Source of the DNA: Brevinematales bacterium
GTDB lineage: Bacteria > Spirochaetota > Brevinematia > Brevinematales > Thermospiraceae
Length of the DNA stretch: 64,000 bases
NCBI GenBank assembly: GCA_026417555.1
Contig: JAOADA010000001.1
Span: 273,245-337,244, forward strand
Direction of reading: 5' to 3'
Under the pieces are notes generated by a model. That model saw only the letters and a program-made list of their open reading frames with translations. It made no database searches and was not told the origin of the DNA. The translations under genes and the position numbers were made by a program. Of this stretch, positions 18,669-22,881 are shown piece by piece. Position 1 is the stretch's first letter. Each line of letters opens with the position of its first letter.

Positions 18669-20519
18669 ATGAGGAAACAGGTTGGGTACACAATAATTTT
18701 TGTTGTTTTTTTGGTTGGGGTTTTCTTGGTGATAGAGGGGATATTTCGTATAGGAGGGATAGGCTATACGACGGAACCCTTTGAACGTGTTCCTGGTACT
18801 CCCTACTATCGGGATAATCCAGACTTTCTCAATAAATACTATCCTGGGCGTCGAACTCCTCGTTCGGAAGCAAAGTTTAAGAACCTCTTTCTAGTGGAAA
18901 AACCCACTAATGGGTTTCGTGTTTTTATTGTGGGAGGATCTACGGCACAGGGATGGCCTTTCGAGCCCAATCAATCCTTTGGAAAAATGATAGAGGTGGT
19001 CCTCCAAAAGGTATTTCCGGAGAAGTATGTAGAGGTGATCAACCTTGGGTATAGTGCGATGAGTAGTTATTATGTCGCAGATGTAGTCAAGAAACTTTTC
19101 CGCTATCAACCGGATGTTCTCCTTCTCTATACAGGGCAGAATGAATACTATGGAACGCTTTCCGTGACAACAGGCAGAGGGTATAGGGCGAAAAAGCTCT
19201 ATCTTGCTCTTCGGGAATGGAGGATTTTTCAGCTTCTTTTTAGTCTTTTTGAAACAAAAAAGGATCCTTCACGAACAATGATGGCCGCTCAATTTGCGGG
19301 ACGTCGGATTGCTTTTGGGGAAAAGGATACAGAAGTAGCGGAAGCGTTTTCTCGCAACCTTCGGGGAGTTTTTGATGAAGCTGAAAAACACCATGTGCCG
19401 GTGGTGGTGTATGAGATGGCTGCCAATTTGATCCATATGCCCCCTTTTGCAAGTCAAGATGAGGAACTCTTTGCTCCCCTTCTTCTTTCGAATCAGAATC
19501 GTTTCCGTCGTGAGACATGGAAAACCCCGGAAACTGCCCGTCTTCTCTCTGAGTGGCAACACCGCTTCCCTTCAAATGCCCATGTTTGGTATCTCACAGG
19601 CATTGCCCAGAGGGCTAAGCAAGAGCCTTTTCTTGAAAGTTTACGGCGAGCCAAGGATTTGGATATGATACCTTTCCGTTATCGGGAGGGTGTTCGAGAG
19701 GTTTTGTGGCGGGAGAGCCAACGAAAAGGGGTGATATTTCTTCCGTTACAGCAAGAGATAGAAAAACGGTTTGGATATGAGGGATTTGGACGGCTTGTGT
19801 TTATTGATCATCTTCATTTTCAATATCTTGGGCAGGTGTTTCTTGCCGAGTTAGGGACAAAGGCTCTTCTCTCTTTGGTGAATCCGACAAACGAACATCC
19901 ACGGGAGAGGCTCTTTGGAGAGGTAGAAAGGCTTTTTCAAGAGGTCTATCAGCAAATGAGTCATGTTTCCAGGAAAGGACTAGCCCATGATACCTGGCTT
20001 GATGCGTCCATCTTTTTTACGGCGTATGATGAATTTATGGCCATTCAGAATATTCTTGTTCTTCTCTCTCAAAGCCCCTATCGAGAGATGCTCATCCCTT
20101 TTGGGAAGGATCCCGCGTGGGAAAGGATGACTATGGTGTCATCTGAACCATGGAGAACGTTTGTGGCTTCTTATGACAGCAAGATACACCAAGGGTTTGG
20201 AAATTTTCTTCTTTCTGAGTTAGCAAAAGCAAAGCGTTGGGAAGACATTGAGCTTCTTCTTGAGGCATACCGACATAACAATCCCGGCTCATACGTGGGC
20301 TACAGAAACTGTGCTGAGTTTTTTCTTTCTCAGGGACAGCACGAGAAAGCTCTGAAGTTATATGCTATGGCGTATCTTTTGGCAGAAGGAAGGGAAAGGG
20401 ATATGTTGGGCCAACAGGCAAAAAGGCTTGCCGAAAAAACAGGGGATAAAAACCAGTGGGAGAAACTTTTGAGATGGCTTGCGAAAAATCCGTGGTCAAG
20501 TTATAATATCTGCCGTTAA
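18669..20519 (+). CDS. Membrane-anchored SGNH/GDSL-fold protein with C-terminal helical (TPR-like) region
   Basis: 616-aa ORF with an N-terminal TM helix. SGNH blocks visible: FIVGGSTAQG (Ser), YTGQNEYYG (Gly/Asn), FIDHLH (DxxH). Confidence 0.6.
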   Translation: MRKQVGYTIIFVVFLVGVFLVIEGIFRIGGIGYTTEPFERVPGTPYYRDNPDFLNKYYPGRRTPRSEAKFKNLFLVEKPTNGFRVFIVGGSTAQGWPFEPNQSFGKMIEVVLQKVFPEKYVEVINLGYSAMSSYYVADVVKKLFRYQPDVLLLYTGQNEYYGTLSVTTGRGYRAKKLYLALREWRIFQLLFSLFETKKDPSRTMMAAQFAGRRIAFGEKDTEVAEAFSRNLRGVFDEAEKHHVPVVVYEMAANLIHMPPFASQDEELFAPLLLSNQNRFRRETWKTPETARLLSEWQHRFPSNAHVWYLTGIAQRAKQEPFLESLRRAKDLDMIPFRYREGVREVLWRESQRKGVIFLPLQQEIEKRFGYEGFGRLVFIDHLHFQYLGQVFLAELGTKALLSLVNPTNEHPRERLFGEVERLFQEVYQQMSHVSRKGLAHDTWLDASIFFTAYDEFMAIQNILVLLSQSPYREMLIPFGKDPAWERMTMVSSEPWRTFVASYDSKIHQGFGNFLLSELAKAKRWEDIELLLEAYRHNNPGSYVGYRNCAEFFLSQGQHEKALKLYAMAYLLAEGRERDMLGQQAKRLAEKTGDKNQWEKLLRWLAKNPWSSYNICR

Positions 20520-20530
20520 AGGAGGAGAAA

Positions 20531-20692
20531 GTGCGCGTATTGGCAAGGTTTTTGAAGGAGTTCTGGCTTTTTGTCAAGGAAAACAAGAAGATATGGCTTA
20601 TTCCGATTGTTTTTTTGATTGTGCTTTTTGGGGTGGTGGTTATTCTTGCGCAGTCTCAAGCCCTTGCACCGTTTATCTATAGCCTTTTTTAG
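20531..20692 (+). CDS. DUF5989-like 53-aa membrane micro-protein (not in the supplied ORF track)
   Basis: GGAGG, 5 nt, then GTG at 20531. Translation VRVLARFLKEFWLFVKENKKIWLIPIVFLIVLFGVVVILAQSQALAPFIYSLF, ending at TAG 20690-20692. It matches the pattern of small proteins found next to carbamoyltransferase/SxtJ genes. Confidence 0.7.
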   Translation: MRVLARFLKEFWLFVKENKKIWLIPIVFLIVLFGVVVILAQSQALAPFIYSLF

Positions 20693-20695
20693 TGT

Positions 20696-22507
20696 ATGGT
20701 TATTCTTGGAATCTCAGCGTTTTATCATGATAGTGCGGCTGCCCTTGTCAGAGACGGAGAGATTGTGGCTGCCGCTCAGCAGGAAAGGTTTTCTCGAAAG
20801 AAGGGTGATGAGAGTTTTCCTCGCGAGGCTATAGCTTATTGTCTTGATGAGGCTGGGGTTTCCATTCAGGATGTAGATTATGTGGTTTTTTATGACAAAC
20901 CCTTGGTAAAGTTTGACCGTATTCTTGCTTCCTACATCCACACAGCCCCAAAAGGGATACGTTCATTCTTGATGGCAATTCCAGTATGGATCAAACAAAA
21001 ACTTTGGGTAGAAGAATATATCCGCAAGGAGCTTGCCTATAAGGGAACGGTGTTATTTTCTTCTCACCATCAGGCTCATGCGGCAAGTGCTTTCTATCCC
21101 TCGCCGTTTGAGCGAGCCGCTATTCTCACTGTGGATGGGGCAGGAGAGTGGAATACCACAACCATTGGATATGGAGAACGAAATCGGATAACCCTTCTCA
21201 AGCATATAGATTTTCCCCATTCTTTGGGGCTTCTCTACTCGGCATTTACCTACTACTGTGGGTTTAAGGTAAATTCTGGGGAATACAAACTTATGGGACT
21301 TGCCCCATATGGTGAACCAAAATATGTTGATGTAATAAAAAACCATATTCTCACCATAAGAGAGGATGGTTCTTTCGAACTCAATGAGCGTTATTTTGAT
21401 TATATCAGTGGGCTGACGATGATCTCTCGTCAATTTGAAAAACTCTTTGGACAGAAGGCTCTGCCCCAGGGGGGAACACCTACACCGTTTTACATGGATG
21501 TGGCAGCTTCTATTCAGGCAGTGACGACGGAAATCCTGGTGAAGATGGCTAGGTATGCCAAACAGATCACAGGGGAGAGATACCTTTGTCTTGCGGGTGG
21601 TGTTGCACTTAACTGTGTTGCCAATAGTCGTATTCTCTTGGAGAGCGGGTTTGAGGATGTGTGGATACAACCAGCAGCTGGGGATGCTGGGGGGGCATTA
21701 GGTGCAGCCCTTGCAGTGTGGTATGGATATCTTGGTCGTGAGCGAAAAGTGGATGGGATCCATGATTCTCAAAAGGGGAGTTACCTTGGACCGTCGTATG
21801 CTGAAAGCAAGATCCAGGAGATTCTTGATGCCTATGGGGCTGTCTATGAAAAACTTGGCGAAGAAGAGCTTCTTCGCAAAACGGCCCAAGCCATTGCTGA
21901 TGGAAAGGTAGTGGGGTGGTTCCAAGGGAGAAGTGAGTTTGGTCCTCGTGCCTTGGGTAATCGTTCAATTCTTGGGGATGCTCGTCGTGAGGATATGCAG
22001 ACCACCATGAATCTGAAGATAAAGTTTCGAGAGTCTTTCCGTCCCTTTGCTCCGGCGGTTTTGGCCGAGGATGTGGGGCAATGGTTTGAGTGGGAGAAAG
22101 CGTCTCCGTATATGCTGTTTGTGGCCAATGTGAGGAAAGAACATAGGTTGGCGTTTTCCAAAGAGGGAAAAACGGGTCTTGATCTTCTTAAACAACCGCG
22201 TTCTGTGCTTCAGGCTATCACTCACGTGGATTTTTCTGCTCGTCTTCAAACAGTGCACAGGGAAACAAATCCAAAATTTTATGCCCTTCTGGAAGAGTTT
22301 AAACGTTTGACGGGGTGTAGCGTAATCATCAATACCTCTTTTAACGTACGGGGAGAACCTATTGTGAATGATCCTCGGGATGCTTATCGCTGTTTTATGG
22401 GAACCCATATAGATGTCCTTGTGATAGGAAACTTCTATTTAGAAAAATCTCACCAACCACCTTTTCAGGAGCTTCACACATGGAAAAGTACACTCATCGC
22501 CGATTGA
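20696..22507 (+). CDS. Carbamoyltransferase (NodU/CmcH family)
   Basis: 603-aa ORF. N-terminus ILGISAFYHDSAAALVRDGEIVAAAQQERFSRKK and C-terminal INTSFNVRGEPIV are hallmarks of the NodU/CmcH family. Confidence 0.9.
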   Translation: MVILGISAFYHDSAAALVRDGEIVAAAQQERFSRKKGDESFPREAIAYCLDEAGVSIQDVDYVVFYDKPLVKFDRILASYIHTAPKGIRSFLMAIPVWIKQKLWVEEYIRKELAYKGTVLFSSHHQAHAASAFYPSPFERAAILTVDGAGEWNTTTIGYGERNRITLLKHIDFPHSLGLLYSAFTYYCGFKVNSGEYKLMGLAPYGEPKYVDVIKNHILTIREDGSFELNERYFDYISGLTMISRQFEKLFGQKALPQGGTPTPFYMDVAASIQAVTTEILVKMARYAKQITGERYLCLAGGVALNCVANSRILLESGFEDVWIQPAAGDAGGALGAALAVWYGYLGRERKVDGIHDSQKGSYLGPSYAESKIQEILDAYGAVYEKLGEEELLRKTAQAIADGKVVGWFQGRSEFGPRALGNRSILGDARREDMQTTMNLKIKFRESFRPFAPAVLAEDVGQWFEWEKASPYMLFVANVRKEHRLAFSKEGKTGLDLLKQPRSVLQAITHVDFSARLQTVHRETNPKFYALLEEFKRLTGCSVIINTSFNVRGEPIVNDPRDAYRCFMGTHIDVLVIGNFYLEKSHQPPFQELHTWKSTLIAD

Positions 22508-22881
22508 CAGTTTCAGAGTATAGACATTTTGGTTTTTCGTTTGGAGTGGGAATGCTTCTTCTCACCCTTATTGGCTGGTGGAGGCATTTTCCCTTTCCTC
22601 TTGTGATGGTGACCCTTGGGCTTTCTCTCTATCATTGGGTTGTAGGACTTCTCTGGCCACGTTCTCTTTGGGTTTCGGAGATGGTGGTTTCTGGAGTATG
22701 GTATGGTGTCTCTCAAATGATCTCTCGTCTTGTGCTTGGGGTACTTTTTTATGGTATTCTTACGCCTTTGTTCTGGTTGCTTCGGCTCTTCGGTCAAGAC
22801 CATATAGCAAAAAACAGGGGAGAATGGCAAGACTTTTCTTCCTCTGAGAATGATCCCAAAAAGATGGAACGATGGTTTTGA
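22480..22881 (+). CDS. SxtJ-like membrane protein
   Basis: 133-aa ORF with AGGAG 9 nt upstream and a 28-nt overlap with the carbamoyltransferase. Predicted TM helices and an LRxFG-like N-terminus, as in the SxtJ family. Confidence 0.65.
   Translation: MEKYTHRRLTVSEYRHFGFSFGVGMLLLTLIGWWRHFPFPLVMVTLGLSLYHWVVGLLWPRSLWVSEMVVSGVWYGVSQMISRLVLGVLFYGILTPLFWLLRLFGQDHIAKNRGEWQDFSSSENDPKKMERWF

Follow-up and report, generated by a model that had tools for sequence, protein, structure and literature searches.

In a 64,000-nucleotide stretch of DNA from a Brevinematales bacterium (GenBank assembly GCA_026417555.1, contig JAOADA010000001.1, positions 273,245 to 337,244 of the forward strand; hereafter the window), four adjoining genes appear, by profile and structural comparison, to form a Brevinematales version of the widespread four-protein sxtIJKL-type membrane-associated module. 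Their products are a membrane-anchored SGNH protein, a DUF5989/SxtK-family microprotein, an O-carbamoyltransferase (CT) and a divergent SxtJ protein. The microprotein ends in a tyrosine-containing motif that fits the one used by the acyl-shuttle proteins DltX and PatA, and membrane-anchored SGNH proteins recur as neighbours of the CT, SxtJ and DUF5989 genes in other genomes. Together, the recurrent SGNH partner and the shuttle motif yield a mechanism hypothesis that is testable by mutation, namely a carbamoyl relay in which the group would pass from an SxtJ-docked CT to the tyrosine of the microprotein, from there to the SGNH serine and finally to an extracytoplasmic acceptor. We give this reading somewhat less than an even chance of being correct. 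An earlier note on this DNA, made from the sequence alone, had singled out the same genes as a cassette; here, it was followed up by profile searches, locus scans, AlphaFold 2 (AF2) models and the literature.

The four proteins of the cassette

The cassette and its features are as follows, with the basis of each assignment in brackets.

18669 to 20519, + strand: membrane-anchored SGNH protein with helical insert and TPR-like C-terminal half, 616 aa (Pfam, homologues, AF2, Foldseek)
18672 to 18755, + strand: N-terminal transmembrane (TM) helix of the SGNH protein, aa 2-29, ending in a conserved E23..R27 motif (hydropathy and AF2)
18939 to 18941, + strand: Ser91 codon, predicted nucleophile, block I GGS (invariance in 33 homologues)
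19806 to 19817, + strand: block V D380-H-L-H383, predicted catalytic Asp and His (invariance of H381 and H383)
19896 to 20486, + strand: TPR-like helical C-terminal region, aa ~410-606 (paired AF2 helices; Pfam TPR hits of relatives)
20531 to 20692, + strand: DUF5989/SxtK-family microprotein, 53 aa, GTG start (PF19451, E=1.5e-21, 48/49 profile positions)
20672 to 20689, + strand: C-terminal F48-I-Y50-S-L-F53 of the microprotein, fitting FxYxxF, with the Tyr50 codon at 20678-20680 (family comparison)
20696 to 22507, + strand: TobZ/NodU/CmcH-type O-carbamoyltransferase, 603 aa (Pfam and PDB matches)
22480 to 22881, + strand: divergent SxtJ-family membrane protein, 133 aa (profile search, AF2)

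Re-checking the open reading frames (ORFs) reproduced the arrangement described in the earlier note: the four genes are co-directional, with intergenic gaps of 11 and 3 nt and a 28-nt overlap between the CT and SxtJ ORFs. That note had also called the second product a DUF5989-like peptide of 53 aa with a single TM helix, and the PF19451 match bears out the family; what it overlooked is the C-terminal FxYxxF motif. By hydropathy, one TM helix (aa 21-40) separates a cationic N-terminus from an uncharged 13-aa tail. As the DUF5989 family averages a net charge of +3.3 on the N-side and about 0 on the C-side, an N-in, C-out topology is predicted, which would place the tail outside. An F-x-Y-x-x-F C-terminus is present in 70/71 DUF5989 proteins, most commonly as FIYTLF and in the window as FIYSLF, with the stop codon directly after it, and Y50 and F53 are invariant in the family. 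Across the data set, 71 of 20113 ORFs end in F.Y..F, the 71st being a weak DUF5989 match that adjoins an SGNH gene.

One locus (L055; 5319-5999, 2791-5304 and 2630-2780, all on the - strand) carries a ~400-aa SGNH gene followed by a second DUF5989-like gene, a gene for an 837-aa protein and a regular DUF5989 gene. The second microprotein, encoded directly 3' of the SGNH gene, is divergent (Pfam E=1e-3) and ends in PFIYQVF. The 837-aa protein between the two DUF5989-like genes was considered and set aside, as it gave only weak, sub-threshold spermidine-synthase/methyltransferase matches that were uninformative.

The first gene product had been described as a TM-anchored protein with all SGNH blocks and a helical C-terminal half, which the 33-homologue alignment and the AF2 model (pLDDT 91.1, pTM 0.92) confirmed. 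Lipase_GDSL_2 of Pfam matches the protein at a sub-cut-off level (E=8.6e-4), and many of its 40 homologues carry both SGNH and TPR Pfam domains. The blocks are found at G89-G90-S91, G156-Q-N158-E159 and D380-H-L-H383; S91, G156, N158, E159, H381, H383, G89 and G32 are invariant across the 33 homologues, G90 and E23 are nearly so, and position 380 is E or D in distant family members. As read from this alignment, the catalytic blocks appear intact. The sole N-terminal hydrophobic helix, preceded by MRK, spans residues 2-33 by hydropathy and 2-29 in the AF2 model. The topology check proposed in the earlier note predicts that the SGNH domain following this single helix is extracytoplasmic. In hhalign, the alignment with a second, ~420-aa SGNH class includes this helix and its E..R motif. 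In the AF2 model, helices are inserted between blocks III and V. The family profile matched only TPR proteins among PDB sequences, at profile positions ~480-577. A Foldseek search of the model against the PDB returned SGNH enzymes, with PatB (7tjb) among the top matches at E=5e-5; transferases and esterases are not separable by this search. In our own reading of the alignment to canonical SGNH sequences, block II lies at 19041-19064 of the window (aa 125-132, N-L-G-Y-S-A-M-S), where the usual oxyanion Gly is apparently a nearly invariant Ala130, and the ~420-aa class also has G-x-S-A there. The transferases PatB and OatA likewise have no block II oxyanion Gly.

The assignment of the third product as a NodU/CmcH-type carbamoyltransferase held, as Pfam recovers both domains at full length: the N-terminal, Kae1-like Carbam_trans_N (PF02543, E=3.6e-98, residues 3-339, profile 2-346/346) and the C-terminal, YrdC-like Carbam_trans_C (PF16861, E=1.4e-73, residues 397-584, profile 1-170/170). 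Over residues 8-589, the CT matches NovN (1.3e-96), GdmN (1e-87) and TobZ (2e-79) in the PDB. There are 200+ invariant columns among five CT orthologues, including GPRALGNRS, and identity to orthologues in other phyla is 54-67%. On the NCBIfam NodU equivalog the CT scored 155 bits against a cut-off of 1000, and is therefore not NodU itself.

The 133-aa ORF had no direct Pfam or NCBIfam match, even at E<=10, and when its small alignment was compared by hhalign with two individual SxtJ proteins, the matches were weak, at 46% and 1.5% probability. Searching 1.84 billion representatives with a profile built from 7 close homologues of the ORF retrieved 1008 proteins of ~130-140 aa, and 79 of the 104 best of these match PF19588 (SxtJ). 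This exhaustive search identifies the ORF as a divergent SxtJ by transitive membership, and it is solely through the profile search that the SxtJ-like polytopic protein of the earlier note is upheld. A custom SxtJ hidden Markov model (HMM) gave E=3e-44, a circular value as the ORF itself is in the seed alignment. Both the small ORF and the SxtJ-like ORF thus reach the families that had been named for them, the latter by an indirect route only. The AF2 model of SxtJ (pLDDT 92) has two TM helices (residues 11-34 and 39-58) and a 44-residue helix (60-103), followed by a charged tail ending in ERWF. Natural CT-SxtJ fusions in two unrelated genomes (L021 1675-3909, Aegiribacteria, 745 aa; L069 10001-12217, Pyrinomonadaceae, 739 aa) argue for a physical CT-SxtJ complex and for a cytoplasmic N-terminus of SxtJ; if the protein crosses the membrane three times, its C-terminal tail would lie outside. 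The charged tail (window 22786-22878 and SxtJ ORFs of L009-L083) is conserved as ...YW...ERxF, with YW being EW here, and SxtJ proteins end in an aromatic residue (ERQF, ERWF, KRQY). The tail may serve for docking, perhaps onto the TPR region of the SGNH protein.

Linkage across genomes and genomic setting

Linkage was assessed in 80 CT-seeded loci, the best genome hits (one genome per species) of a query alignment of five orthologous CTs; the CTs of these loci are 53-67% identical to that of the window. Six-frame ORFs of the loci were scanned with custom HMMs and other ORFs within 7 kb were clustered. These loci come from >15 phyla, including Spirochaetota, Ignavibacteriota, Bacteroidota, Planctomycetota, Acidobacteriota, Gemmatimonadota, several proteobacterial classes, Cyanobacteria, Omnitrophota, Patescibacteria and others. 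SxtJ adjoins the CT in 76/80, the four exceptions lying at or within ~1 kb of a contig end, and DUF5989 does so in 65/80, in agreement with the earlier statement that the trio occurs in many non-toxin genomes. The genes are ordered CT-SxtJ-DUF5989 in 50 loci and SxtJ-DUF5989-CT in 8; the DUF5989-CT-SxtJ order of the window is a spirochaete variant.

Two families of membrane-anchored SGNH proteins are the most frequent neighbours of the trio, namely the ~420-aa class (17 loci, including all Oscillatoriales loci with enough downstream flank) and the long SGNH-TPR class (11-12 loci); every other family is limited to 9 loci or fewer. Homology between these two classes extends over 310 columns, from the TM helix to block V (hhalign 99.2%, E=3e-19). 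An SGNH partner was found in 29/80 CT-seeded loci and in 16 of the 41 whose flanks reach 5 kb or more on each side. Of a second set of 80 metagenome loci, found with the SGNH family, 27 have a CT within 8 kb, as do 20 of the 40 that measure 12 kb or more; the trio also adjoins five of nine SGNH homologues looked up, the other four being unlinked. The SGNH-trio linkage is real but not obligatory, and the lack of conservation that the earlier note had named as a possible objection did not materialize in either set. A co-directional SGNH gene usually adjoins DUF5989, starting a few bases after the DUF5989 stop or overlapping it; in the window, L007 and L008, the SGNH gene ends just ahead of the DUF5989 start.

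Thermospira aquatica, the closest named relative of the source bacterium, has an identical murB-SGNH-DUF5989-CT-SxtJ order (L001) with proteins 60-85% identical, so the cassette is not a chance arrangement. The murB-SGNH gap in T. aquatica is 10 nt (7127-7990, 8001-9905), with ddl, ftsQ and ftsA close by. As a general partner, murB was rejected, since the adjacency occurs in the window and T. aquatica only and is absent from every other locus, including the other Brevinematales locus (L007) and Treponema (L008). The cassette does follow murB directly, as had been noted, but this link is confined to the lineage.

Six SGNH-seeded loci have DUF5989 directly beside the SGNH gene with no CT seen. 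A lone DUF5989 divergent from SGNH-TPR was observed at L144 2069-2344, L148 4801-4971, L152 7750-7917 and L167 7567-7722 (all on the - strand), with no CT or SxtJ in the 5.8-17 kb covered, indicating that the microprotein-SGNH pair can persist without CT and SxtJ nearby. At five Oscillatoriales loci (L085 4916-6247 and 6251-7588; also L040, L066, L075 and L076), two paralogous ~445-aa proteins without a Pfam match are encoded after the SxtL-like SGNH gene. The unlinked SGNH-TPR paralogue of T. aquatica (L002) lies ~2.4 kb from the gene for a 515-aa protein (4043-5590) matching the Kae1-like HypF_C_2, itself flanked by two diacylglycerol-kinase-like genes (3108-4040 and 5600-6493).

Further features of the cassette region are listed below.

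17794 to 18660, + strand: murB, UDP-N-acetylmuramate dehydrogenase (MurB_C and FAD_binding_4 hits, NCBIfam murB equivalogs)
20520 to 20525, + strand: Shine-Dalgarno-like AGGAGG, 5 nt ahead of the GTG start of the small ORF (read from the sequence)
22895 to 22923, + strand: promoter-like TTGACT-17-TATCAT between the cassette and trpA, a possible operon boundary (consensus scan)

The murB start is approximate (Met59 of the 17620 ORF, where the family match begins), and its stop codon (18658-18660) leaves 8 nt to the ATG of the SGNH gene; murB and the cassette are probably co-transcribed. The promoter-like element is weak, because a promoter and terminator scan of the region returned site counts equal to the shuffled expectation. 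The surrounding genes (murC ~10 kb upstream, clpP, clpX, lon, an MCP, trpA and similar) are unrelated housekeeping genes. Elsewhere in the window, a 194-aa ORF without a Pfam match (25571-26155, - strand) has a signal-like hydrophobic stretch and the C-terminus ...GLGIRWRF, and resembles a small beta-barrel protein of the outer membrane. Every 2-kb bin of positions 1-64000 has a positive GC skew, with a monotonic cumulative rise, and long ORFs lie mostly on the + strand, so the whole window is apparently on one leading-strand replichore.

The proposed carbamoyl relay and its alternatives

DltX (~48 aa) carries an outer C-terminal FXYXXF motif, whose Tyr takes D-alanine from the MBOAT protein DltB and passes it to the SGNH protein DltD; the corresponding peptide of PatA is FIYANF, and this hexapeptide, once acetylated, suffices by itself as a donor to the SGNH protein PatB (PMC12148441). 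A Tyr-acyl intermediate and transfer to an SGNH serine are thus documented for both DltX/DltD and PatA/PatB (PMC12148441). The 48-aa DltX of Bacillus thuringiensis consists of a cationic N-terminus (MERLKEIWSRP), one TM helix and an outside 15-aa tail ending in FIYNEF (GFHDTNTSTFIYNEF) (PMC5541007).

In the relay proposed for the cassette, the cytoplasmic CT, held at the membrane by SxtJ, would make carbamoyl-AMP from carbamoyl phosphate and ATP in a TobZ-like manner. Carbamoyl-AMP formation is established for TobZ-type enzymes. The carbamoyl group would then be loaded onto Tyr50 of DUF5989, whose tail would act as a DltX/PatA-style "acyl shuttle", an intermediate that is purely hypothetical. 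Aryl carbamates are well known to carbamoylate active-site serines, and carbamate cholinesterase inhibitors act in this way. Finally, Ser91 of the periplasmic SGNH-TPR protein would accept the group, as DltD and PatB do, and pass it to a hydroxyl outside the cytoplasm. That DUF5989/SxtK is a carbamoyl-tyrosine shuttle, and that the membrane-anchored SGNH protein rather than the CT is the terminal carbamoyltransferase outside the cytoplasm, we regard as possible but doubtful. The shuttle mechanism was not found in the literature searched, where the module itself is already known with its function unexplained. A full-text search found no paper tying DltX or an acyl shuttle to carbamoyl, although a mention of the motif in Schultz et al. 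2023 is possible, and no paper assigning the trio a substrate or its two small membrane proteins a role, which agrees with the earlier statement that no substrate is on record.

Several points weigh against the relay. Judging from the models, there is no obvious trans-membrane conduit, SxtJ having three helices only, and the relay offers no explanation of how an outward-facing Tyr would come into contact with an active site in the cytoplasm. No MBOAT model matched the four cassette proteins or the annotated recurrent neighbours. Neither hmmsearch nor hhalign nor Pfam gave significant evidence that DUF5989 and DltX are homologous, and homology is unproven at the sequence level: Pfam DltX (PF12459/DUF3687) matched none of 30 DUF5989 members at E<=10, and hhalign of DUF5989 with B. 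thuringiensis DltX covered 45-46/48 residues at E=0.0015-0.01 and 2-17% probability, values that are uninformative at such short length. DUF5989 is best described as DltX-like in architecture and motif rather than as a demonstrated homologue. Carbamoyl-serine enzymes usually turn over slowly. The Foldseek match of the SGNH model is generic, with esterases scoring as high as PatB and DltD falling outside the top 50. At ~10 loci with adequate flanks, CT-SxtJ is present and DUF5989 absent, and ~60% of the CT-seeded loci have no SGNH gene within 7 kb. Public sequencing runs with the window sequence amounted to one DNA run (a hot-spring metagenome) and no RNA. Lastly, SxtL has been proposed in the literature to be a putative decarbamoylase.

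The decarbamoylase proposal for SxtL and the earlier note come close to a different reading, in which SxtJ and DUF5989 would tether the CT for carbamoylation of a lipid-linked or membrane-bound precursor at the inner face, while the periplasmic SGNH protein would trim carbamoyl or acetyl groups. Such an arrangement needs no membrane conduit, and it is in keeping with a CT that lacks a TM segment and is naturally fused to SxtJ in places, with Foldseek matches of the SGNH protein that are mostly esterases, with the suggested decarbamoylase role of SxtL and with the lipid-linked glycan neighbours (Bac_transf, glycosyltransferases) at the loci. It leaves unaccounted for, however, the near-invariant last six residues of the microprotein, including a Tyr on the predicted outer tail, as well as the frequent abutment of the SGNH and microprotein genes, and it would be unusual for a single, tightly coupled operon to encode both writer and eraser. 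On balance, we consider this arrangement unlikely, though worth keeping in view. It is improbable, in our estimate, that the genes serve two separate functions, with the trio modifying a small molecule or lipid (compare saxitoxin tailoring) and the long SGNH-TPR protein acting in another process, e.g., on alpha-glucans. The share of CT-seeded loci without an SGNH neighbour and the four unlinked SGNH homologues would fit such a division, as would the long SGNH genes found by GH13, pullulanase or CBM48 genes in 17/80 SGNH-seeded loci and in 5 of the 12 CT-seeded loci with a long SGNH gene. Against it stand the rank of SGNH proteins as the top two neighbour families of the trio, the recruitment of two SGNH subfamilies to the same place in different phyla, the proximity of a CT in half of the longer SGNH-seeded loci and the six SGNH-seeded loci that retain an adjoining DUF5989 with no CT seen. 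The probability left over after these three readings covers models we have not thought of.

As for the acceptor, an extracytoplasmic glycan is the most economical reading. Recurrent neighbours at other loci include GT2 (9 loci), GT4, DegT and GMD/epimerase (6 each), GT9, RmlA-like, UDP-glucose dehydrogenase and AsnB (5 each) and Bac_transf (4). The envelope-glycan idea of the earlier note is thus plausible from neighbours in other phyla rather than from this genome. The murB adjacency hints at peptidoglycan, and the neighbours elsewhere hint at a surface polysaccharide or alpha-glucan. A MurNAc or GlcNAc hydroxyl of peptidoglycan or lipid II would make the system a carbamoyl counterpart of PatA/PatB O-acetylation; this concerns the acceptor only, and is a sub-case of the relay or of inner-face carbamoylation, nested within their probabilities. 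The murB-SGNH gaps of 8 nt in the window and 10 nt in T. aquatica (there near ddl, ftsQ and ftsA), murC upstream in the window and PatB as a top structural match of the SGNH model all point towards peptidoglycan. Set against them are the restriction of murB adjacency to these two genomes (it is absent from L007, L008 and all others), polysaccharide or alpha-glucan genes as the neighbours elsewhere and the unrelated housekeeping surroundings of the cassette in the window, and we think a peptidoglycan acceptor very improbable.

Long SGNH-TPR genes were also observed by genes for GH13 amylases (some with type IX secretion tails), a pullulanase and CBM48/CBM53 proteins, an adjacency that spans Bacteroidota/Ignavibacteriota, Treponema and Alteromonadaceae (Glaciecola L005, with the pullulanase by an SGNH pair). 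The regions of alpha-glucan enzymes are L005 9537-13907; L152 5921-7738 and 9937-11808; L167 2436-4310; L121 5909-7564 and 11796-13862; L148 3-2654; L042 12535-14433; and L002 15072-17387. None of these alpha-glucan enzymes (GH13, pullulanase, CBM48/CBM53) was found in the 64-kb window. The adjacency may hint at an alpha-glucan acceptor, or may be only shared synteny.

The CT-SxtJ-DUF5989 trio has a very wide bacterial range. If the relay is true, it would be the first MBOAT-free envelope-acylation strategy moving a non-acyl group, would extend the cell-envelope acyl-ester principle to carbamates and would imply an unrecognised +43 Da envelope modification. It would also reassign SxtJ, SxtK and SxtL, unexplained since 2008, and make SxtL-type proteins transferases, not decarbamoylases. 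Should the shuttle model be wrong, the conserved terminal tyrosine would still call for explanation.

Relation to sxtIJKL, TobZ-type and acyl-shuttle systems

In the published tables of sxt genes, sxtI, J, K and L follow one another (PMC2679770, PMC2684587), sxtL being a GDSL lipase gene of 1281 bp (PMC2679770). As sxtL comes directly after sxtK there, the cassette probably corresponds to a quartet rather than to a trio with a stranger; the parallel with SxtI/J/K drawn in the earlier note holds, and the SxtL GDSL lipase is the fourth member that it overlooked. A common Oscillatoriales origin has been assigned to sxtI/J/K/L (PMC2684587), sxtI is truncated and sxtL also missing in Lyngbya wollei (PMC3037375), and sxtJ, K and L are grouped together in the suomilide gene cluster (PMC10157211). 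Reviews to 2025-2026 have SxtJ and SxtK act "in conjunction with" SxtI, without a mechanism. The SxtL link is drawn from published gene order and size and from Oscillatoriales homologues: the non-toxin Oscillatoriales loci L040, L066, L075, L076 and L085 are arranged CT-SxtJ-DUF5989-SGNH, and their ~420-aa SGNH class matches SxtL in size and position and is homologous to the SGNH protein of the window.

The cassette and the sxt block share the same four protein types, i.e., a NodU/TobZ-type CT, SxtJ, SxtK/DUF5989 and a GDSL/SGNH protein. The order is I-J-K-L in sxt and SGNH-K-I-J in the window, where the SGNH protein is of the long type (helical insert, TPR-like tail) and SxtJ is too divergent for PF19588. 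From these comparisons, the long SGNH-TPR partner, the different order and the divergent SxtJ appear to set the cassette apart from the sxt block. Its context is also one of housekeeping genes after murB rather than a toxin cluster, and as there are no other sxt genes in the region, nothing suggests toxin production.

With TobZ, NovN, GdmN, NodU and CmcH, the CT shares the full two-domain architecture and their conserved motifs. Those enzymes are soluble, have no SxtJ or SxtK partners and tailor small molecules directly at their hydroxyls, whereas the CT clade of the cassette almost always travels with two membrane proteins and is sometimes fused to one of them.

The likeness to the Dlt and PatA/PatB systems, which are grouped with Alg and Wss as MBOAT-SGNH acyl-shuttle systems, extends over several components. 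The microprotein has the same layout as DltX and the same motif as DltX and PatA, with FIYSLF in place of FIYNEF (DltX) or FIYANF (PatA). Its predicted SGNH partner resembles DltD and PatB in having one N-terminal TM anchor and an apparently intact Ser-His-Asp set (S91, H383, D380). Donor activation in the cytoplasm by an adenylate-forming enzyme falls to DltA in the Dlt system and would fall to the YrdC-like domain of the CT here. In contrast to the Dlt system, the cassette has no carrier protein, and the MBOAT protein of the Dlt and Pat systems is replaced by a three-helix SxtJ. The group moved is an acyl group in Dlt and Pat, and would be a carbamoyl group in the cassette.

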